A stretch of 62,877 nt of DNA, the filler included. It is 8 parts of 8 records of this genome, joined end to end, with 100 filler letters (N's around TTAATTAATTAA, not from the genome) between each part and the next. Parts side by side here need not be neighbours in the genome. Positions count along the whole stretch, not along the records: positions 43,702 to 51,780 come from SRR7504441_651; 7 more parts are not named here. The stretch is one strand, 5' to 3'. Within the stretch, counting starts at the first letter, position 1; every line of letters begins with the position of its first letter. The notes below the pieces were generated by a model. That model did no database searches and had not been told where the DNA came from. It was given only the letters and a program-made list of their open reading frames with translations. Shown piece by piece: positions 6,001 through 59,179 of this stretch. A program made the translations under genes and the position numbers.

Positions 6001-9000
6001 TGGCGCGAAGATTTACCTGAGGAGGTGCCTTCTATTGGGCGTGCAAGCCATTCACTGTTTGTTGGCAGGTGAGAAATTCTGGAATCTACCCTCGGAAGCA
6101 GTGTCATGGCACTGATAAGGTCAATCCAACCAAGCTCGAGTGCTTTGCACGGTTCTCATTCGCAAGTGGTGGACGCGGCTTTAGCACTCCTTATGGAACG
6201 GTGATGCCAACGCTCTCTAAGCAGTGTTCGACAATGGGTTGCAGGTGACAGTGCCAGCTGGTTTGGTGGTGTCAGGGAGGATGAAGCTTCACGACTGGTC
6301 GCTCGATCTGGAATTTGTCATTGGACACACAGGCAATCACACTTGATCATCATTCGCTAGTTAATGTATCTTGGTTGGTGCAGGCTTCAAGGTCGACTCT
6401 GAGATGTCTCCAATCATCATCAAGGACGGTCCTACTGAGCTCGTCTCGATTACACGAGCGCGGGATAACCGTCGTGAAGGGCCCAAGTTCTATCTGATGG
6501 CCGACTTGGTCTCAGGCGTCGCTGTCGATATCAAAGGGTGCCTCAATTCTCTTGACTGATGTGCTAGATTATGGCCTGGTGCGGTGTAGGCTTATGGATA
6601 TTCCGCACCTGAAGACAGCTGCTCCAGTGGACATCCGAATTGGCTCCAAAGGGTTCAAAACCGTGCTGTAATTCACACAAATCTGCGTTAGTTGAGCTGA
6701 CTGGAATGGACAGATACAGCAAGGTGGCCGATCTGACTGATGCCGAGGTCGAAGTGAGCTGGACATGGGACCGGTACATGATGGCACTTGCGGGCGCTTG
6801 ATTGAGTGATGATGGCAGCAAAAACTTCCTGGTGAAGGGCGACTTCGAACCGCTCGACATTAAGTTGAATGGGTCCCTCATCGCTAATTGCTCAGGCTGA
6901 TGCCATTTGATGCATGCAGGTACCACTTGCTGGAAGTAAAGCGGGACAAGTATTCAATGAATCAGCTGCTTCTGCAGATCCACCAGGAGTTGCTCCAGCT
7001 TAACCAGCCGCACGATCCTTACACAGCAGTGGTGCTAGAGAGGAATAAGCCGTTCAGTGACCAAGAAATTGAGCTTATACAATCAATTCCAACCGAACCC
7101 GCTGACGAGACGGAGCTACTTGATATCCCAAGCTTTAGCATCCCAAGTGTGTCCGGCATCAATCCCGAGATGGACGATTTTAATTTCCCAATGCCAACTC
7201 TGCCGAGCATCACAATGCCGAAACTACCGAGCATCACACCGCCAACTATGCCCTGGGACTCTCTGGACACGGAGGAAGAGGATATACCAGCTCTCAACAA
7301 GTTCACACGCAAGGCTAGTGGTTGTCAATGCTATTGGGACCTCACGCGATACGACTGCGCGTGTTGCGACGAATCTGTGAAAGCATGCCAGTGTGGCAAG
7401 AAACGCAAGGACAGCTGCACCGAATGTGGGAATCCAAAGTTCTGCCGCCGTCCTAATGGTCCCAAGATTCACTTCGAGGTGAAGGATGGCGATCCCGTGA
7501 TAGACATTCGAGGATACGCGGCTCTCCCATTTCTGCAGACTTATGGAACCGTGACTCTGATGAATGACGAGAACCTGTTTAAGTTCCAAATGGAGGCACA
7601 GGTTGTTTCCAGTGTTGCATCTCTAAGCCGATGTGGTATTTAGGTACTTGGAATCGCCAGGGCCAGCCTGGGGCTGACACACGTGAAATCGCACAACAGG
7701 CAGCCGCAGAGACTGACAGTGGAAGGAGACTTTCAGCTTACAGGTGTGCCATATCTATTGTTGCTGGGTCCCGCTCACAGATGGGCAGGCATAGATGGGA
7801 TTGAGGTTCAGATCATCGCGCAAGCTGCACGTGATGTCGAAACAGTGCTAAAAGGGATCGATCAGGCTATCGTCTGGGTGTGTTCCTTACTCTGGTTACG
7901 CCATGCCCGTGAGTGGTGCCGTTGCGCAGGCGGTAGGTCAGCTGGATTGGCACATTACAAATGTCGAAAACATCTACAAGGGCGTACAAGCCCTCGACGT
8001 TTTTAAGGCAGCAAAGGCGCTTCGAGACGGTACGCAGCTGGAAGTGTGCAACCTAAGCGACTTTCAGAGATAATTGATGGACCACTGGGGCTCGAAAAAG
8101 CGAAAGAAAGGGTGAAGAACATTCCTGACGATTTTCTGAAACTTCACCAAACCTTGACCACTGGCCCTGCTATCAAGTACAGCACCGTTAAGTGAGTCTC
8201 GATCCCTTGCCAGGGAGCTGCATCTTGGCCAGTTGCACTTGATGGCATTGCCAGGGAGCTGATCCGCATGTTCAAGGATTCCCCTGGAAAAGCCGCACAG
8301 TTGTTTGATGAAGCTGCTGGCCCGGTGAATGCACCGTCTGCCGTCAGCAATCGTGCGCAGGTTGCAGAGCTTTTGCGCATTAAGCACGCTAGCTTCAACG
8401 TTCAAGTGGACTCTAGCGGCTTGGACTGGGAGACGTCCGTGCAAGCGAGTTCCCAATCTGTGCTTCTGCCAGTACTCGCAACAAGTGGTCACCTTACACA
8501 CGGTGCACTAACTGACATCATAGCTGATGATGGGCGAACTGAACAGGTGAGCTGAATGATCTCAAGGACGCGCTCAGTCCAGAGAAGCTGGCAAAGGTGG
8601 CTGGCCTTATTCAGAGCGGGTCGTGTTCAACCTCCTTGGGGTGGTACAGAAACTGGTGGACGAAGCGCTTGGAGCTCTCACCCAGCTTGGCGAAGAGATC
8701 AGCAAGTGAGCAGCTCGACGTCACCATCCTGCATGCTGAGCATGAGGATGCAGATTGACCGAGGATTTTGTCGAGACAATGGCAGCAGAGGCCGACAAGA
8801 TTTTGAAGGTCGGTTATTGGTCTCCACCCGTATAGTACAGTAAGGATGCCCGTATAGTAAGGATTTTATCCAGTTTATCCTGTTTATGCGTTAGTTTAGC
8901 AAGGCTTTTGATGCAGGAAATCACCGGGCTTTTTGACAATGTGGGGAAAACGCTTGAAAAGGGAGCCAACGATGTGGGGAAAGCGCTTGAAAAGGGAGCC

Positions 9001-15117: not shown

Positions 15118-15217
15118 NNNNNNNNNNNNNNNNNNNNNNNNNNNNNNNNNNNNNNNNNNNNTTAATTAATTAANNNNNNNNNNNNNNNNNNNNNNNNNNN
15201 NNNNNNNNNNNNNNNNN
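15118..15217. other. Artificial contig spacer
   Basis: 44 N + TTAATTAATTAA (stops in all six frames) + 44 N. Confidence 0.97.
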
Positions 15218-23960: not shown

Positions 23961-24060
23961 NNNNNNNNNNNNNNNNNNNNNNNNNNNNNNNNNNNNNNNN
24001 NNNNTTAATTAATTAANNNNNNNNNNNNNNNNNNNNNNNNNNNNNNNNNNNNNNNNNNNN
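23961..24060. other. Artificial contig spacer
   Basis: N44-TTAATTAATTAA-N44. Confidence 0.97.
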
Positions 24061-32125: not shown

Positions 32126-32225
32126 NNNNNNNNNNNNNNNNNNNNNNNNNNNNNNNNNNNNNNNNNNNNTTAATTAATTAANNNNNNNNNNNNNNNNNNN
32201 NNNNNNNNNNNNNNNNNNNNNNNNN
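32126..32225. other. Artificial contig spacer
   Basis: N44-TTAATTAATTAA-N44. Confidence 0.97.
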
Positions 32226-39275: not shown

Positions 39276-39375
39276 NNNNNNNNNNNNNNNNNNNNNNNNN
39301 NNNNNNNNNNNNNNNNNNNTTAATTAATTAANNNNNNNNNNNNNNNNNNNNNNNNNNNNNNNNNNNNNNNNNNNN
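39276..39375. other. Artificial contig spacer
   Basis: N44-TTAATTAATTAA-N44. Confidence 0.97.
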
Positions 39376-43601: not shown

Positions 43602-43701
43602 NNNNNNNNNNNNNNNNNNNNNNNNNNNNNNNNNNNNNNNNNNNNTTAATTAATTAANNNNNNNNNNNNNNNNNNNNNNNNNNNNNNNNNNNNNNNNNNN
43701 N
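43602..43701. other. Artificial contig spacer
   Basis: N44-TTAATTAATTAA-N44. Confidence 0.97.
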
Positions 43702-43716
43702 CCCTTCCTAATTTAA

Positions 43717-46700
43717 TTAGGGGAAAACCCAGCGTCCGGAGGCCACCTGCGAGTTCCTGTCGAGCAATATCACACCACTGCTGCTCAGCTCCTCCTGCGA
43801 CAGCTGCGGCGGCACCCCCGGTGCGGATGACAAGGATGACCTTCGATCTGACTGGATCGAAGCTCGCGAGCCAGCCAGCTGCTCCGTATCCGTATCCGAC
43901 CGGTTAGAGTTGATGTAAAGCACGTCACTTGCGTTCCGGATCTGCTCCTCTTCGTAGGTATCATTCCCGAGCGCCCCTCCGAGGTGGTGATCTATGCACT
44001 GCCGAAGCCGGTTGTGCGCCTGCTGCTCCCTGGTCTTGCTCGAGCTCGACAAGTTTCCGTCTTGTATAGACATGTCTATTACCCGCTGGCATCTGTACAT
44101 TGCAGCCCAGTCCCGTCGTATCTCTCTTGGTGCCCTGAACACCATACACAGCGATATCAAGTAACGCTCGCCGCCAAACAAGAGCTTCTGCTCGTGAGCC
44201 TTGGCCATTGTGCTCCCGGCCCGCCACGCAAACTCGACCGCCACGCTGCCATCAGGGCTGGAGCTCTCAGTGAAGGTACCGTCCAGCAGCCGCTTGGACA
44301 ATTCGACTCCGAACTCGTGGAAGAGAGAATCGTGCGGCTGGCCATCGAGCGCGTTCCGCGAGAGCGAAAAGTGGTGCAGATAGCTCTGGTTTTTGAAGTA
44401 GAAACAGTTATTGAACATGTCTTCCACACGACCCAGCAGCCCGTCAAACCAGCGCAGCATCGGCTCATGCTCTGTCGAGGCCAGAGCTGCCTCGAATCGG
44501 CCCTCGGCGATACTGCGCTCGCTTTCGAGCAAACCGGCCGCCAGCATCATTTGTTCGATGCAGTCGTCGCGCACATCATCCAGCATCTGCTCGTACAACT
44601 CCCAGCCTTTCACAGAATCGCAGCACAGACTTCCGAGCAGGTTCACACTTGTGTCCTTCCGCTTGCGAGTGTCCGTCTCTGCGAGCCGCTGGTGTGCCTG
44701 CAGCAACTTCCAGTCAGCACACTCAGGCCTGTAGCCACCGTGCAAAACTGACTATACGGCACAGGGTTGCCGGGCTGCCAGAACTCAGCTCGGTTGTCCC
44801 AACGCTCAGGGTCGAGGAGCTCGCCCTGCTGCGGGTCATTGCACTTGGTTAGATGTGCCTCGCGCAGCCGTTCAAGCCTGCCCCCGTCTTGAGCGCATCC
44901 CGGGCCGCACGCACCAGTCTTGGACGGCCTCGGAACTGAGCTCACCCGATTTGTCGCCGGCTTTGTTGCCGACGGCCTGGGGGCCTTCAGAGATGCAAGT
45001 GTACACTACCTCGTAGAACGCACGGCCCTGCACCGGTCTCAATCAAAGATCGGATTGATCGGGTCACCTTGAGAAGCAGATAGGCCTCTCTGAGCACAGC
45101 AGCTCCGAGGTGCGGCTCACAGTCTTTGCCCTTGAACGCCCGCACTCCGTTCCTCTCCTCCCACTTTCCAACCGGCCCAAACACGATCTTGCCGCTCGAG
45201 TCGCGCTCAACAAACTGGTCGACCGGCTCAAAGATGATCGTGCAGCCAGTCTTGAGCCCTTCAATGATCTTCATGCAGCTTTGCAACAGCTGCAGGAACG
45301 CCTTGTTCGCATTCGCCGCTGTGAGCGGATCTTCGCGTGCCGCCTCAAGCATGGTATCCAGGAAGAGCCGGAAGGCGATGGTATCGCTCTGCGCTTCTTT
45401 GAACTTGTCAAACCTACATAAACTCAGCCAAAACCGGCCGCTCGGCTGGTCTATACTGTACTATACTGTACTGTGCACCGGGTCTTGCACGAGGCAAACC
45501 AGTTGGCGAACAGCTCACGGTCGTAGAATTCGAGCAGTACAGCCATCCCATACACGACCTGGCCTCACTCAGCACTAGCTAGCTCCGACCAGACCGGCGC
45601 ATTGAGCTGATCATAAAAGCAGCTGGCCTTCTTCTGGCTGGCGTCTTCGTCGTTGACGTGCCACGCGTCCGGGTCGCACAGCTGCTGCCACGCGTTGTAC
45701 ATCTGCTTCACTGTCCGGTGCAGCTCGTACACTGACTTGCCGGGCGCGATTTCTCCGAATATCTCAATCCACTGTGCCTCGCTTATGATCTCCACCACGC
45801 TCACCACATTCCGACTCTCGACGTACTGACCGGACTGGAAGGTCTGGCCGGCCGGGGCGCACGGCAGCGCATGGTACTGAAATATCAGTTTGAACCCCTG
45901 GTGCAACTCCCTGATCCCTTCGGCGATCATGTGCCGAAAGACCTGCTCCTTGATCCGGTCGACTGTCTTTTTGTACCCCGGCTCGCGCGGCTGCCTGAGC
46001 AACGGGCTTGCCTCGTTGGGCAAGTGCCGCGTCTCCCAGAGAGCTTTGGCGTCCGGCACCAGGAACGTCGAGCATGGGAGAGCCTGAAGCAGCCACTCCT
46101 CTCCGGCCTGGTCCTGCGCGCCCACCCCGATCTCGTGCAGCTGCTTGCCGCCCTCCTCCAGCACCAGCTCCATCCCCGTCACCCCGTGCAGCGCGAAAGA
46201 GGCCAGTTCGTCCATCCGAGCAGACGTGTACGCCGAGAACGTAACCGCCAGGCAGAAATGCCCCTCGAACGCCTCCCTCTCAAGGTTGAGCAGCACACTG
46301 ATAGCCTCCTCCTCGAAGATCGACGCAAACAGCGGCCTCCGGTCAGAGCTGATCGGGCCGTTGCTGTCCTCTTTCGCTGAAGGCTCGACACAGCAGCCGT
46401 TTGGCGCCCACATACAGCCAATCAGGCACTGGGTCCTGAGCGCCTTTGGGTACAAGTCCGAATCGAGCAAATGTTCCAGCTGGTGCGCCACGAACATCCT
46501 CTTGGCTGTGAGCGGCGAGTTTGAGTCTGCTTGCATAGTGAGTAGCGCTCTGCAGGTGGTAAGCTCCTTGATGGCGCCGTTGCGCTTCTCCTTCAGAAAG
46601 TTCTGCTCCCAACGCAGCACGCCGTACTCGAGCACGTGCCTCTTAAAAAACGCGATCAGCTCCCAGGTGCTGTAAAGCCGGTCAGGTCCGGCACCAAACT

Positions 46701-49700
46701 GAAGCTGCAGTTTCTCAAAAAAGATATTATGGTCCCACACCGGGCCGTTGCCCTTTTTGTTGTGGCTTCTCTTGTACTGCTTGGGTCCGGTCCAGCCGTT
46801 CTCGGGGATATTAGGGCTGAAACATCCAGGGAAACCATCCCAGCAGATCTCGTACAACTCGTCCTGGGTGAGCCGCCTCTGCTCGTGATTGAGCATCTGA
46901 TCGTCAGGCTCCTCCTGCTCCAGCTCGGCTGCCCCACGCGCCCAGTCTGCAGTGCCGCGCTCTTTAATTTTAGTGAGCAGCACCCGCTCGACTACCGCAA
47001 TTGGTGACATGCACACCGGCTTTTCGCAGACGTATCGGCAGTTATTGGAGAGCGTGTACTGGAGCCACAGCTTGAGCTGGAGTGGGACCGCCGCCACAAA
47101 CACGAAGAGCACCGTAGCGCAGGTGATCACACCAGTACACATCTGGGCGGACCCAAACAAGAAGTCGTTGTCGGGCAGAATGGTGGCCGCAACTCCCCAG
47201 ATCAGGAGCACGAACGCTGCGAGCAAGACGCAGCCACCTGCCGAATTGGACGAGACGATACCTTTATGGAAGTCGAAGGCGCCCGAGTCGTTGTGATGAA
47301 AGACAAACACTGGCAGCAGGAAGACGCTGGTATAAGACCAGCCGGAGAAGTTGCGCGACATCGTGAGAGCAAGGCAGAGCAAGATCACTGTAAAACTCCA
47401 GCAGACGGCGGTGAGGTAAAACATGACGCGATGCGCACGGCTGTGATTGCCCTTAGACTCGGCCCAAAAATGCATTGAAAGCACCGCGCCACCGATTAGA
47501 GCTACCACCAAGAGGATTCCCACTATCAACCCCCAGTTGTGATCCCAGAACTCGCCAAGCCAGCTGGAGCACCCGTTCTCCTGCTCCTCTTCCTCCTGCG
47601 TAATCAGACTGTCCACCTCGATCTCTTCATCCTCTGGCTGCGGATCGCTTTTGGGCGCTGCCAGTGTAAGCTGTCTCTTGAGCTGCTTAGCCGGCTGTGG
47701 CTGGGCCGCCAGATCGACCTCCGACCCCGGCGTGTCAAGCAGCTCGCCAAGTTGCAAGTAAGCCATCCGCTTGCGCCGCCGTTCGCTGTTCTGATGGCGC
47801 TTGTGCAGCCGAGTCAGTTGTTCAGTCGAGCGAGACACCACTAGCAGCAGCAGCCCGAGCACAGCAAGCCAGCCAGTCGCTCCGGACATGATAATCACGG
47901 TGGTCGTCCTCACCGTGTCGCCGTTACCATACACTTGCTTGCTCCACATGTAAACTCCCACGAGCATGCCCACAAACGGGATCAGCCAGACCTTGCTCGC
48001 GTTGGCCAAGACAGTGTTGTCCTTCCAGCCTGGCATGCGCGGCCGGAGTAGCATCAGCACGACGCACAGAACCAGGTACCAGAGCGACGTGATCGTAGGC
48101 ATCCCCCACAAGCCTTCATCTATCCAAAGCGCGAGGTTGAGGATGATTGCCAGCACAAGCCCTTGCACCAAAAGGTCGTCCAGGAAGGAGTTGGCTTGCT
48201 TGTGGGCCAGCGCCCGCACAATTGGCAGCACCGAGCTCAGCACTACAATCATCGTGGTGCCTGTCCACATAGCCTCGGCCGCGTCCATGAACACAAATGT
48301 AGCTGCAACCCAGGCCACAAACGCGCCCGCCCCTACCAGCGTGAGCACCATATTCTGCTTGTCTCGTGTGCGCATGCTTCCGCTCCGATAGGCGACAAAT
48401 CTGGCGTTGTAGCTGGCGTCGGCCAATCCGGGCGTGTTCCAGAAGTAGTACTTGTTCCTGGCCCACGAACCAAGCACCGCCAGCAGGCAGAGCAGCACCA
48501 CTGGCACGAAGGTGGCCAGCAGCAGGTGCCGCTTGTTGCCCTGGAAGCTGCGACCAAACAATGCGTTGTTGTAGTGTTTATCGTGCCAAACAATATACCC
48601 AAACAGCCCGTCCACCAGCAGCCCGCCCAGCGACCCAATCAACACCCCAAACTTGCTCCGCCTAATAGCTTCTCTGTACCCCGCTACCGCCTTGAGCTTC
48701 TTGTCGCCCTCGGCCAGCCTAGGCCAGCGCCGCTCGGCCTGCGTAATTTTCGCGATCTCGCGGACCCTCTCCGGCCCGAGCAGCTGGTGCTCGGTCAGCG
48801 TGCCCTGCAGCGGGCCCAACTTGACCTTGCCCTGCTGGCCGCACCGCCTGCCGGCGGCCCTGGCCAGCTTATGGCTAGTCAGCTTGGCCGACTTGAGATT
48901 CCGGCCCACACCGGACTGCGAGAAGAAGCTGTGCGCCATCGAGCCAGCCAGCAGTGCCGCGGCCACCTGCTGCCGGGGGCTGCCTCCGTACTGGCTGGCC
49001 GCGTGCTGCGCTCGGAGCGCGATGTAGTCGACGGCCCAGTAGGCCATCAGGTAGAGAGTCGACTTGACTGCCTTGTCAATCATCTTAGGCATGTCGGCAT
49101 CCTCGGGCTCGGCCTCCGCTCTGGCCATCTTGCGCGAGTAGTGCGCTTCTATCCGGTCGCGCACGTTGTACTTGGTCACGTACTCCTGGTCAAACCCCTC
49201 AAAGGCAAACGTGACCAGCTCCTCCAGCCCGGCCTCCTGGCCCTTGACCCTCTTGAGCACCCGCCGCACAAACTCGGCCCAGAGCCGCACAATCGTGAGC
49301 CCCATCAGCTCGGCTGCCACTCGCGGCCGCTCGGACCGCAGCATGTGCCTGCTGTGCTCGAGTGGCATCGCCTGCTCCACCAGCTGGTCCGGCGAGGAGT
49401 CCGGCTGGTCGCGGGCCAGCTCCCTGAGCTTAAGCCGGGCGACGTACTGCTGGTAGGAGAGCGCGTACCTGGGCTGCTTGAGCTCGCCGCGGCTGTTGAG
49501 CTCAGGAGGCCTCTCGCTCCGCCGGGTGAGGTCCTCGCGGATGGCTTGCTCGGCTTGATCGAGCTGCTCGGTTTTGACTGTCCAGCCAATCAGCCCTCCA
49601 TACGACATGGCCTATTACTATTACTGTACTATTGCTGTACTATTCATATTACCTGTCCAGCCAATCAGCCCTCCATACGCCATCGCCCACGAGAACAGCC

Positions 49701-51605
49701 CGAACGCGTACACTAGCACCAGCCAGCCGAGCTGCTCGCGACTAAAGGTCTCGGGCACCGGCCACACCTGGCGCTGGACCTTGGACGGCTCGTATTGATC
49801 CATTAGCGCCGAGTAGAGCACGTGCACCATTGTGGCCATCAGCAGCTGGCGGGCATTGATCAGCAGCTTCCAGTAGAGCAACATTCTGGTCTTCTGCTGC
49901 AGCTCCAGCCGCTGACTGCAGTGCAGCTCGCGCTGCTCAATCGCCTGCTCCAGCTGAGTTGGGTTTAGCCTTTCGTCCATTCGGATCCCTTTGCTCACCA
50001 CCCGCAGTCCGCTCTCGATCTCCTGCGCGTACCCTGCCATCAAGACCATGTGCTCGCGGCACTGAAGCTCTAGAGAGTAGATCCGCGCCTGGAGCAGCTC
50101 CGTGAGCACCATACTGTTACAGTTACTGTTACTATTACATAGTACTATACCTGGAGCAGCTCGGTGGACGTCTGGCTCAGCAGTGATTTGCCCCCGTAGC
50201 AGCACTCCCCCAGGCAGCGCCATAGCCCGAACAGAGCCTCCTGGCACATCCGGCAGCACCAGGCGCCCCCGGCCCCGCGCCTGGCTCGCAGCTCAGCCAC
50301 TATACTATTACTATGACTATGACTATGACTATGACTAATACTATACCTGGCTCGGATCAGCTCACGCTCGCAGCTCAGCCACTCCAAATACCGCTCGTCG
50401 GCCACCAGCTCGGCGATGCTCTGCTCCTTCTGGTAACCGGACCAGAACCCGGCAGACAGCTGGAACGAGAGCCCCCCTGCGAGTAGCAAGTACCAAACCG
50501 GCTCCACCAACTGCCAGCCGCCAATTTCATCGCCACGTGCGTTGAGCCCCAGGTAGATAACAATCATACGGAAGCCTATGACGGTCCAGAACGAGTGGAT
50601 CACCTCGGCGAAGCTGCGGCCGGTGTGGCTCGAAAGGTTGAGTAGCACAAGCAGGTCTGTGACCTGCAGCCACGGATAGACATACATCGCGGACTGCTGA
50701 TGCGAGCTGAGCCACTGGCCGCTTAGCCCGTAGATCAGCAGCGATAGCCCACTCAGGCACCAGGTGGCAAGATAGGCAGAGAATCCCCAACGGCGCTCAC
50801 CGCGCGAGTTGAACGAGCCCCGGCAGTGCAGGCTGTGCGTGTGGTGGTACAGGTAGTCGTTCAGGTCTATTCCGAGGTCGTGGTGGTACTGGAACAAGAT
50901 GACCAGCATCAGCAGCCCCGAGACCAAGAAGAAGAAGATGGCCGTGATGATATCGTCGTACTCATCCACTACCAACGACAGCATCAAGATATAAAGGCAA
51001 AACACCAGCGCTGCGCTCCCCACCCACGCAGCTGTAGTGCTATACACTATCCACTCCCGGAAGTACCACATGAACAGCCCCAGCTTGAACAGCTCGAACG
51101 AGCACAAAAGCGAGAACGAGGCCATCGCCAGCACGTAGCAATGGTCGTACTGCCCGTAATACTCTGACGTCCCATTCCAGCTGAACTCCTGCGGCCCCGC
51201 TTAACACTGACGTTCCGGGGGGCACCCAGTAGTAGGTGTACACCGAGAGCATCATCAGCGCAGCGAACGGGCAGACGGCCATGCTGAACAGGAGCCAGGC
51301 GGACAGCTCCATCCTGCGGCCCAACACTCAGCCAGGCCCAGCCCGGCGATGGCACAGGCAGGTCTCGAACATGCGGCCAAACCAGTCCCAGGTGGCCAGC
51401 CAGGTATACATCCGCCACGGCCTCAGCGAGCCCGAGTAGTAGAGAATCACGGTGGACAGGCAGGACAACCCGACGAAGCATCCGATGTAGGGCGCCGCGA
51501 ACTGGGCCACCGCCTGAGCCACGCGCCAGGGGGGGGGCGGCCCACCTCCCAGTACTCCTGGTACACCAGGTTGCGCGCCGTGTAGAAGCATTGGCTGAGC
51601 GGCAT
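43717..51605 (-). CDS. Very large multi-pass membrane protein of unknown function (multi-exon, >2000 aa)
   Basis: It starts at ATG 51605 (MPLSQCF). ORF fragments join in frame across introns including 51502-51545, 50281-50346, 50089-50150, 49578-49652, 45559-45594 and 45414-45478. There are many hydrophobic helices. Confidence 0.75.
49578..49652 (-). other. 75-nt intron = 40-nt AT-rich filler + 35-nt duplicate of the upstream exon end
   Basis: 49578-49604 is identical to 49653-49679 (27 nt; 33/35 when extended). It has GT..AG ends and an in-frame stop, and splicing gives WT|VKTEQ. Confidence 0.85.
50089..50150 (-). other. 62-nt intron = 46-nt AT-rich filler + 16-nt exon duplicate
   Basis: 50089-50104 matches 50151-50166 at 15/16. 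Splicing gives ELLQ|ARIY and repairs the frame. Confidence 0.85.
50281..50346 (-). other. 66-nt intron = 45-nt AT-rich filler + 21-nt exon duplicate with an internal deletion
   Basis: 50281-50301 equals 50347-50354 + 50371-50383. It has GT..AG ends and is in frame with no stop. Confidence 0.75.
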
Positions 51606-51780
51606 GTTGGGCCGGCCGACGGGTTAGCCTTGGCCTGTGTTACCCCACAGCACCAGTTGCATCTGCTGCGGCAACGGATGCCGCTCAGAAAAAAAGTCAG
51701 TTGCAGCTGACATGTACAGTGTATTCCTGGCTCAGAGATAGACCAGTCATACGTTTTGACTCGGCAAATGTTGAAGAAAT

Positions 51781-51880
51781 NNNNNNNNNNNNNNNNNNNN
51801 NNNNNNNNNNNNNNNNNNNNNNNNTTAATTAATTAANNNNNNNNNNNNNNNNNNNNNNNNNNNNNNNNNNNNNNNNNNNN
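51781..51880. other. Artificial contig spacer
   Basis: N44-TTAATTAATTAA-N44. Confidence 0.97.
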
Positions 51881-59079: not shown

Positions 59080-59179
59080 NNNNNNNNNNNNNNNNNNNNN
59101 NNNNNNNNNNNNNNNNNNNNNNNTTAATTAATTAANNNNNNNNNNNNNNNNNNNNNNNNNNNNNNNNNNNNNNNNNNNN
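59080..59179. other. Artificial contig spacer
   Basis: N44-TTAATTAATTAA-N44. Confidence 0.97.

Follow-up and report, generated by a model that had tools for sequence, protein, structure and literature searches.

The window (the whole stretch of DNA that was analysed, 62,877 nt) consists of eight metagenome contigs joined by N linkers. One of these contigs, SRR7504441_651 (43702..51780), is filled by a single giant gene on the minus strand, which is open at both ends and was traced by tblastn of its homologue P0003 along the whole contig. P0003 is a 2688-aa protein of Telonema subtile to which no function is assigned; no Pfam family was found in the two large frames of the giant gene, and Rfam gives no match on the contig up to an E value of 1. 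The source organism is probably an uncultured marine protist, whose link to Telonema is suggested by the target gene family; a flippase encoded on another contig yielded no close named relative. Regarding the sequencing runs, the best one contains a fraction of 0.22 of the words and the others 0.06–0.07.

Four RNA contigs match the gene between 43747 and 44766, with at least 99% identity, and an RNA contig joint in run X4 skips the 41 nt of a tiny intron, I6 (44698..44738, minus strand). The RNA cover of the gene is confined to this segment; the introns I1, I2 and I3 lie outside it, and we infer their splicing from the sequence. None of the three is skipped by a contig joint, which reflects the lack of cover over 44767–51780 and does not speak against splicing. 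When these three are removed, the spliced model is 5430 nt long and codes for 1810 aa with no stop; when Ia, Ib, I5 and I4 are removed as well, it reaches 6081 nt and 2027 aa, again with no stop. This stop-free 2027-aa frame is obtained only once the seven predicted introns have been taken out.

Three of these introns, on the minus strand like the others, are tiny and GC-rich. Ia (51314..51355, 42 nt, with an in-frame stop) and Ib (51189..51225, 37 nt) are predicted from their removal in the gene model, and I5 (45559..45594, 36 nt) from the in-frame TGA that ends a 1348-aa frame and from colinearity with the Telonema protein; none of the three shows exon-end similarity in the end-anchored comparison. 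I4 (45414..45478, minus strand, 65 nt) consists of a 28-nt AT-rich 10-mer repeat, which has ATAGTACAGTA in common with I1, and of a GC-rich part that is a hairpin (fold versus shuffles, z −2.37). I4 was considered as a fourth intron containing an exon copy, in a decayed state, and was rejected, its end-anchored score of 1 being reached by 20 of 20 decoys. The introns of the gene are 36–75 nt long.

I1 (49578..49652, minus strand) is a 75-nt phase 1 intron that starts with GT and ends with CAG, and whose removal fuses a 145-aa exon with the 1348-aa frame. In the order of the minus strand, the end of a 436-nt exon (the exon copy, 49653..49687, codons A-M-A-Y-G-G-L-I-G-W-T, ending in CAG) is followed by a 40-nt AT-rich filler (49613..49652, or 41 nt with the ambiguous G at 49612), which begins with the GT donor and contains short tandem units, then by a second, 35-nt copy of the exon end (49578..49612), which carries a CTGAT branch-like motif and the CAG acceptor, and finally by the next exon. 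The initial annotation had described the 3' end of the intron as a near-identical copy of the exon, and the repeat search bears this out: the direct repeat 49578–49612/49653–49687, with a start-to-start spacing of 75, is identical at 33 of 35 positions (94%), with an exact match over the 27 nt closest to the splice site. The two mismatches lie within the outer 8 nt, by the filler junction, and may result from error-prone synthesis at the junction rather than from age. The end-anchored score of the I1 tail against its true upstream exon end is 31, the maximum for decoys (spliced-CDS positions that end in the same three bases as the true exon end) is 9, and none of the 156 decoys reaches 31. A chance match of the I1 tail to the exon end is excluded.

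The filler had also been said to carry an in-frame stop; it does, and translation through I1 ends at a TAA after 10 codons (ORF 49621..50292). This stop, the GT..AG ends and the return, upon removal, to a frame colinear with insert-free homologues all agree with the proposal that the gene depends on the splicing of I1. We also considered that only the filler might be spliced out (41 nt, GT..TAG), and rejected this: the frame would shift and lead to a dead end of 94 aa (ORF 49305..49589), and no YTNA, the branch-site motif of the introns of this gene (see below), is present in the filler. The suggestion that the motifs of the upstream exon are potential competing 3' splice signals is not supported. 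The exon copy cannot compete for I1 because it lies 5' of the donor of I1; the only donor with which it could pair is that of the preceding intron, 498 nt upstream, whereas the other introns of the gene measure 36–75 nt.

An exhaustive HMMER search returned 14 homologues of the gene. A word-based homologue search with the 1348-aa frame gave no match and a first scan of metagenome contigs with the 145-aa exon gave no relative; a four-sequence alignment led to two JGI loci, L001 and L002, an alignment including the window's own exons being too diverged. The exon copy aligns with the single ..VYGG.. motif of the homologues. Three of them (P0003, P0005 and P0009) span the I3, I2 and I1 junctions colinearly with no insert, and a fourth, P0012, which lacks the first junction and begins just after the second, spans the I1 junction without insert. 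On metagenome contigs, P0009 and P0018 were each called as a single reading frame, which runs across the three sites. L001 passes through the I1 site within a frame that is unbroken over 1645 aa, and L002 reads through the sites of I3 and I2 in a single frame; L002 turns into unrelated sequence a few codons ahead of the site equivalent to that of I1, and its contig ends 165 nt further on, which may reflect either an intron or a chimera. That the introns are missing from the DNA of relatives is supported mainly by the ENA contigs, which appear to be genomic, judging from the split of the gene into two frames, the JGI loci being either DNA or cDNA. The homologues are only 23–37% identical, so that they do not date the gain of I1.

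Two other introns of the gene are built in the same way. I2 (50089..50150, minus strand, 62 nt, phase 0) consists of an AT-rich filler of about 41 nt and of an older copy, about 16–21 nt long with 12 nt exact, of the end of the upstream exon; the end-anchored score of I2, 14, is reached by none of 156 decoys. I3 (50281..50346, minus strand, 66 nt, phase 2, in frame and with no stop) consists of a 46-nt filler, which includes four perfect GTCATA units, and of a copy of a 36-nt exon segment from which 16 nt have been lost between two CGAGC repeats. The exact tails measure 27 nt in I1, 12 nt in I2 and, around the 16-nt internal deletion, 17 + 3 nt in I3. I1 is thus the least decayed of the three, in keeping with its earlier description as the youngest-looking member; the accompanying claim of a very recent gain stands as a relative age, ranked against the siblings rather than dated in absolute terms. 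A scan for segments that start with GT and end in a repeat, at least 10 nt long, of what immediately precedes this GT found 26 of them (13 per strand); an AT-rich filler (GC 0.31–0.38) is present in three, all in this gene. The family that had been postulated therefore exists, with three members, and is confined to one gene.

The fillers have a GC content of 0.26–0.29 (0.27 for I1), against 0.60 for the coding sequence. They have short words in common: GTAATAGTA occurs three times in the 62.9-kb window, once in each of the fillers of I1, I2 and I3, when 0.05 occurrences are expected, and 0 of 100 shuffles reach three. I2 and I3 both start with GTATAGTA, and their insertion points have 4 nt before and 6 nt after in common (CCAG and GCGCGG, respectively). 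An 11-mer of I1 is also present in I4 and in an intron of another contig, at 8832 (5 matches versus 0.16 expected). In total, filler words of 9–13 nt are common to five sites on two contigs, all on the sense strand of their genes. In the remaining 54 kb of the window, no copy of the fillers was found outside introns, and the I1 filler has no look-alike in the other sequence windows compared.

Regarding splice signals, a YTNA motif whose A lies 10–16 nt before YAG is present in all eight introns of the gene, from which alone the motif was derived, and it reads CTGA in six of them. The 41-nt I6, whose splicing is seen in an RNA contig, is one of the eight. In I1, I2 and I3, the single YTNA of the intron is located in the exon copy; in I1, the candidate branch A (49590, within CTGAT) is 12 nt before the intron end. 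This supports the earlier observation that the branch-like motif and the CAG acceptor both come from coding sequence, since the copied G-L-I-G-W-T codons contain the two of them. Such a signal precedes 26 of 6041 coding positions (0.43%). It is important to note that the spliced CDS also contains 64 pseudo-introns (25 distinct 3' ends) of 36–75 nt that conform to GT..YTNA-N10-16-YAG, which shows that these minimal signals are insufficient alone and that the real introns are marked by something else.

We consider it reasonably probable that the segment 49652..49578 of the minus strand is a functional U2-type GT–AG intron which was gained recently in this lineage by a single event of insertion plus duplication. 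I1 has GT and AG ends, its removal restores the frame, the insert is absent from the homologues, and the spacing of the branch motif is that of the other introns. The GT donor would be the first two bases of the 40–41-nt AT-rich simple-repeat filler, while the CTGAT branch site and the CAG acceptor would have been supplied by the 34–35-nt direct copy of the end of the preceding exon, so that splicing out filler and copy together would restore the exact coding sequence that existed before the insertion. The origin of the event is less certain. It may be that a break with a long stagger occurred in coding DNA, or that the left flank was copied in an equivalent manner during repair; repair would then have filled in around a captured AT-rich repeat, duplicating 20–36 nt of the target. 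The same process would have made the two older siblings, whose fillers are related. Only about 0.4% of the coding positions have a branch-like motif and a YAG suitably placed, which suggests that the survivors are those insertions whose duplicated target happened to be a ready-made 3' half. The copies of the older siblings have decayed while the frame has stayed intact, which suggests that such insertions are tolerated, that is, spliced out. Staggers of 20–36 nt are, on the contrary, an argument against this reading, since they far exceed the 4–12 bp of Daphnia, and we know of no enzyme that makes them. Staggered-break repair, a mobile element and templated repair are all candidates for the mechanism.

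A first alternative, possible and in our opinion rather unlikely, is that the filler is a small introner-like mobile element (an AT-rich GTA-type repeat) which makes long target-site duplications of variable length, for example by target-primed reverse transcription of a simple-repeat RNA tail. The element would give the donor and the duplication would give the branch site and the acceptor. The 9–10-mers common to the three fillers, the recurrence of the I1 11-mer in I4 and at 8832, always on the sense strand, and the variable length of the duplications (about 20, 35 and 36 nt) are in favor of this hypothesis, variable target duplications being a trait of non-LTR elements. A target preference could account for the flanks common to I2 and I3, which are unexplained by random breaks if these are filtered only through selection on the 3' half. 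Run X3 contains short contigs that match the filler only, one of them at a depth of 103, but these may be an unrelated satellite. Introners derived from non-LTR elements do exist, and the survey that describes them dropped the families driven by simple repeats (PMC12130899). Against a mobile element, the repeat search within I1 found no terminal inverted repeats, and the folds of the introns are no better than those of shuffles (z 0.62, −0.45 and 0.15). Instead of being copies of a single sequence, the fillers have only short words of low-complexity DNA in common; no parent element was seen, and no copy lies outside introns in the rest of the window (54 kb).

An extension of this idea, which we consider improbable as it stands, is that telonemid-like protists have an undescribed mobile element that makes introns, with target duplications of 20–40 nt, and that the AT-rich GTA-type repeats are what can be seen of it. 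Reverse transcription, at staggered nicks, of an RNA made of simple repeats is one way in which such an element could proceed, and the element would need to bring nothing more than GT, since the branch site and the acceptor would be formed by the duplicated target. If this were true, families of this kind would be missed by the introner surveys that discard simple-repeat-driven families (PMC12130899).

A second alternative, which we judge quite unlikely, is error-prone templated end joining, of the polymerase-theta type, at a simple break: copying of the other flank would have produced the duplicate, and copying of pieces of nearby AT-rich introns the filler. It would account for filler words being common to introns of one gene that lie within 0.8–4 kb of each other, for the stutter-like tandem units inside the fillers, for the loss of 16 nt from the I3 copy between two CGAGC microhomologies and for the position of both mismatches of the I1 copy at the filler junction. 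On the other hand, no filler stretch longer than 10 nt matches neighbouring sequence, 35-nt copies with 40-nt fillers may not be typical of templated insertions, and the first AT-rich intron of the gene would still require another origin.

It is very improbable that I1 is not a working intron, being instead either a recent insertion that disrupts a dying gene or an artefact of local assembly. The RNA cover ends short of I1, the window is made of short metagenome contigs with N linkers, and none of the listed contigs links the filler to the upstream exon. However, a DNA contig from run X1, which may be the source sample, covers 49466–49650, thus the intron copy and the filler, with 0 mismatches, which means that a public DNA run contains the downstream exon, the intron copy and the filler joined together. 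A unique filler between the two copies is also unlike what we would expect from the collapse or expansion of a repeat by an assembler. The gene is present in RNA contigs; its 2027-aa stop-free frame appears only after removal of the seven predicted introns, and the three inserts, of differing decay within one intact gene, each start with GT and end with YAG exactly where the frame returns.

The tandem duplication of an exon segment containing an AG/GY proto-splice site, as in the model of Rogers, with an AT-rich part that grew later by repeat expansion, is hardly credible here: tandem duplication is an accepted route (PMC2891723), the I2 and I3 targets read CAG/GC, which is an AGGY site, and the four perfect GTCATA units of I3 could have expanded in place, but the I1 target reads CAG/TC, so that the duplicated DNA holds no donor and GT comes from the filler, a bare duplication of 34–36 nt would shift the frame and, being donorless, be unspliceable, and the downstream exon sequence that the model expects at the intron start is present in 0 of the 3 introns.

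We return to the preferred reading, insertion plus duplication, to compare it with known systems. In Daphnia, new introns whose far end directly repeats the end of the exon are considered to bear the footprint of staggered-break repair (PMC4202315). The neointrons of Daphnia pulex resemble I1 in that the terminal bases of the exon recur beyond the inserted DNA, where the intron ends; the source of this DNA is unknown, and the new introns contain internal direct repeats (PMC4202315). The exon-end repeats of Daphnia measure 4–12 bp, versus 27–36 nt in this gene, or about 20 nt for the sibling that has decayed, and presence/absence polymorphism was demonstrated for the Daphnia gains (PMC4202315). 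For I1, no contig joins 49653 to 49577 within a thin cover that consists of contigs, not reads. Also unlike Daphnia, the repeat described here spans the whole functional 3' half of the intron, branch site and acceptor included, and three cases with related AT-rich fillers are found in one gene.

Introners, or introner-like elements, were reportedly treated by Huff et al. in 2016. They recruit splice dinucleotides from target-site duplications (10.1101/2020.10.14.339549, PMC11282704). The introners of Micromonas, Aureococcus and dinoflagellates are thus similar to I1 in recruiting a splice site from a duplication, which here gives the acceptor together with a branch-like motif, and the places where they survive are shaped by selection on motifs of the coding sequence (10.1101/2020.10.14.339549, PMC11282704), as is proposed for I1. 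Their duplications are 3–8 nt long and of fixed length in each family (10.1101/2020.10.14.339549, PMC11282704), whereas those of this gene are variable, from 20 to 36 nt. According to the same sources, introners mostly have terminal inverted repeats and exist as hundreds to thousands of near-identical copies, unlike the present introns, which have no inverted repeats and only short filler words in common.

In the Rogers model, part of the intron is an exon copy and the acceptor comes from coding DNA, as in I1; the model derives the entire intron, with its two splice sites, from the duplication of an exon segment that includes an AGGT site (PMC2891723), whereas here 40–46 nt of foreign AT-rich DNA give the donor, GT being absent from the I1 target. 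In Drosophila, the cases of tandem duplication have lost their footprint (PMC2891723).

Regarding local spread, the three introns can be set beside those of Oikopleura. Nearly identical pairs of introns are said to exist within Oikopleura genes, and related introns at unrelated positions of one gene would suggest local spread in both cases. Unlike the members of these pairs, the fillers of I1, I2 and I3 have only words of 9–12 nt in common, and each is accompanied by a copy of its own upstream exon. Among the titles returned by the literature searches, none describes an exon-end duplication of at least 20 nt that supplies a branch site; this is not proof of absence, and cases with longer duplications may exist in print. 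The search also listed no paper on nuclear-genome introns for this deep-branching marine lineage.

The origin of new spliceosomal introns is still argued largely from decayed footprints. The footprint of I1 is almost intact and shows a feature absent from the known cases; judging from its structure, I1 still displays how a new intron can arise with its branch site and its acceptor both taken from an exon. The duplication is long enough to turn ordinary codons into a complete 3' half, so that the incoming DNA need only start with GT. With introns of 36–75 nt and very loose signals, the birth of an intron becomes a one-step event, and the presence in one gene of three introns of differing decay points to an ongoing process in this deep-branching marine lineage. 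The gene is also a natural test set for the features that define a tiny intron beyond GT, CTGA and YAG, since it contains 64 unused look-alike segments.

Last, we note that contigs of runs X1 and X2 have loose ends on the gene (at 49691, 50243 and 50418, among others). They were examined and set aside: they belong to long contigs that are unlike the window beyond the match (share 0.71 and 0.53, respectively), and we treat them as chance or conserved-word matches from other organisms.

The AT-rich intron I1 of the giant gene (49652-49578, minus strand, 75 nt) appears to carry a genuine and well-preserved scar of the birth of a spliceosomal intron. Along the minus strand, the exon end is followed by GT, an AT-rich filler, a copy ending in CAG, and the next exon. 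A repeat search returns a 35-nt direct repeat (49578-49612 and 49653-49687, spacing 75 nt) with 33 identical positions out of 35, the 27 nt adjoining the splice site being exact. The exon end that precedes I1 codes for A-M-A-Y-G-G-L-I-G-W-T and its last bases are CAG. In an end-anchored alignment, the tail of I1 scores 31 against its own upstream exon end, versus at most 9 for decoys from the same coding sequence (n = 156), which confirms the initial annotation of this tail as a near-exact exon copy. The filler that follows GT (40-41 nt) consists of AT-rich short tandem units and, as had been claimed, interrupts the frame: on read-through, a TAA is met after ten codons.

The window is divided by seven identical linkers (44 N, TTAATTAATTAA, 44 N; 15118-15217, 23961-24060, 32126-32225, 39276-39375, 43602-43701, 51781-51880 and 59080-59179) into eight separate contigs, so that spacing and adjacency across linkers have no meaning. 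The contig at 43702-51780 is a single minus-strand gene throughout, based on tblastn of a Telonema subtile protein; the gene is open at both ends, with more than 2000 aa seen, and its product has numerous predicted membrane-like hydrophobic stretches. No Pfam family was found for it, nor any relative by word-based search; an exhaustive HMMER search gave 14 homologues. Only one is named, a T. subtile protein of 2688 aa known from the transcriptome; the other relatives are unnamed metagenome proteins, several of them called as frames on metagenome contigs of ENA, and the giant gene therefore belongs to a lineage-restricted orphan family. The remaining contigs carry eukaryotic genes (a P4-ATPase, a VEFS-box protein, an LNS2 protein and TMEM43), and parts of the focal contig are contained in public runs, namely metagenomes of aquatic or marine origin and a single marine metatranscriptome.

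The giant gene is expressed, since RNA contigs from the public run X4 match 43747-44766 with an identity of at least 99%. In one of them, a 41-nt GT..AG segment (I6) is skipped, which shows that tiny introns are really spliced in the source organism. RNA cover is confined to 43747-44766, so that for I1 and its two AT-rich siblings, I2 and I3, splicing is what we infer. The model from which I3, I2 and I1 are removed gives 1810 aa and no stop, and that with seven introns removed gives 2027 aa, again with no stop. Three homologues (P0003, P0005 and P0009) align gap-free over all three junctions; a fourth, P0012, starts just after the I2 junction and is informative for I1 only. The exon upstream and the frame downstream align to one and the same ..VYGG.. 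motif, single in the homologues, just as expected from a redundant copy.

Tblastn of the Telonema protein also uncovers further small minus-strand introns, two of which, Ia (51314-51355, 42 nt) and I5 (45559-45594, 36 nt), are GC-rich, have a length that is a multiple of three and contain an in-frame stop; the GC-rich intron class of this gene spans 36-42 nt. A gene finder blind to Ia and I5 would truncate the gene at 45565. Intron Ib is 37 nt long. I4 (45414-45478, 65 nt) combines a 28-nt AT-rich 10-mer repeat with a GC-rich hairpin, whose fold has a z of -2.37, with 2 of 200 shuffles equally stable. No exon copy was found in I4, which indicates that the AT-rich repeat introns of the giant gene are not all alike in build.

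GT-started segments were scanned for a 3' end that repeats the bases preceding GT, which gave 26 candidates; only three of them, I1, I2 and I3, all within the giant gene, have an AT-rich filler. I2 (50150-50089, minus strand, 62 nt) has an exact tail of 12 nt, or about 16-21 nt with mismatches; I3 (50346-50281, minus strand, 66 nt) has an exact tail of 17+3 nt, whose source is a 36-nt exon segment from which the 16 nt between two CGAGC repeats are missing. The GC content of the fillers is 0.26-0.29, compared to 0.60 for coding sequence. The word GTAATAGTA occurs exactly three times in the 62.9 kb, once in each filler, for 0.05 expected, and I2 and I3 share their start, GTATAGTA. The copies in I2 and I3 have clearly decayed, yet the frame is intact, so such inserts have been tolerated for some time, which further argues that they are introns. 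No inverted termini were found in the three introns, and none of them folds more stably than shuffled sequence.

All eight introns of the giant gene contain a YTNA motif (CTGA in six) with its A 10-16 nt upstream of a terminal YAG. In I1, I2 and I3, the sole YTNA of each intron sits inside the exon copy, which for I1 supports the proposed origin of branch site and acceptor from codons. The proposed role of the upstream exon copy as a rival 3' signal has little in its favour, since this copy lies on the 5' side of the I1 donor. A YTNA-YAG signal of this kind precedes just 26 of 6041 coding positions (0.43%); that all three inserts are at positions so rare implies either strong selection filtering or a targeted process. 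In the spliced coding sequence of the giant gene (51489-45026), 64 apparently unspliced exon segments of 36-75 nt fit the minimal GT..YTNA-N10-16-YAG rule, therefore the tiny introns must be defined by information beyond the visible signals.

The inserts are absent from relatives: on ENA contigs, P0009 and P0018 each run through the I1, I2 and I3 sites as a single frame. P0018 and P0002 are separate frames for which the same longest contig is reported, so this contig looks genomic. Two JGI loci, which are DNA or cDNA, cross the I1 site (L001) or the I3 and I2 sites (L002) in one frame. At 1950-2115 of L002, the frame ends a few codons short of the I1-equivalent site, giving way to unrelated sequence up to the contig end; the P0012 cluster, closely related to L002, is uninterrupted at this point, and an intron, a rearrangement or a chimera could explain the break. 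With identities of only 23-37%, the homologues show that the presence of I1-I3 is lineage-specific, and leave the gain undated. Among the contigs of the public runs, no intron-free allele turned up, at a cover too thin for one to be expected.

The layout of I1, target-filler-target, is the expected product of a staggered break filled in around captured DNA, of the insertion of a mobile element that duplicates its target, or of opposite-flank copying in error-prone end joining. Whichever the enzyme or process, we favour insertion plus duplication in a single event, with selection favouring targets that resembled the 3' half of an intron from the outset. It has the look of a mobile family in that the fillers of I1-I3 are related, are in sense orientation and, for I2 and I3, are inserted at identical flanks, CCAG before (50151-50154 and 50347-50350) and GCGCGG after (50083-50088 and 50275-50280). 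The homologues are colinear, so the exons around I2 and I3 are not paralogous; a preferred target, gene conversion or chance could account for the identical flanks. The deletion in I3, which is bounded by microhomology, and the two mismatches of I1, which cluster at the filler junction, suggest templated repair. Tandem duplication was rejected for I1, since its target sequence is CAG|TC and its donor is supplied by the filler.

The principle behind I1 is already known; what is unusual is how long the duplication is and that it serves as a complete 3' half. In the closest described cases, the repeats are much shorter: 4-12 bp for the neointrons of Daphnia (PMC4202315) and 3-8 nt for introners, which recruit only splice dinucleotides from the duplication (10.1101/2020.10.14.339549, PMC11282704). 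Added here are three cases that lie in a single gene and have AT-rich fillers related to one another, the support of homologues at each junction, and the tie between duplicated segment and branch-site signal.

Last, we note that the word ATAGTACAGTA is common to I1, I4 and an intron-like stretch at 8832 on another contig. There, codon 10 of a small gene for a repeat protein is followed by a probable 117-nt intron (8809-8925, plus strand); this intron contains two CCCGTATAGTA units and a 12-13-nt word common to I1 and I4, and its last 16 nt or so loosely resemble, by eye, the preceding exon end. In run X3, a seawater metagenome, several short contigs, one at depth 103, match the filler repeat only (49612-49643 and 45451-45472), and some link it to the I4-type repeat; these matches represent either a filler relative present in many copies or a satellite with no relation to it.
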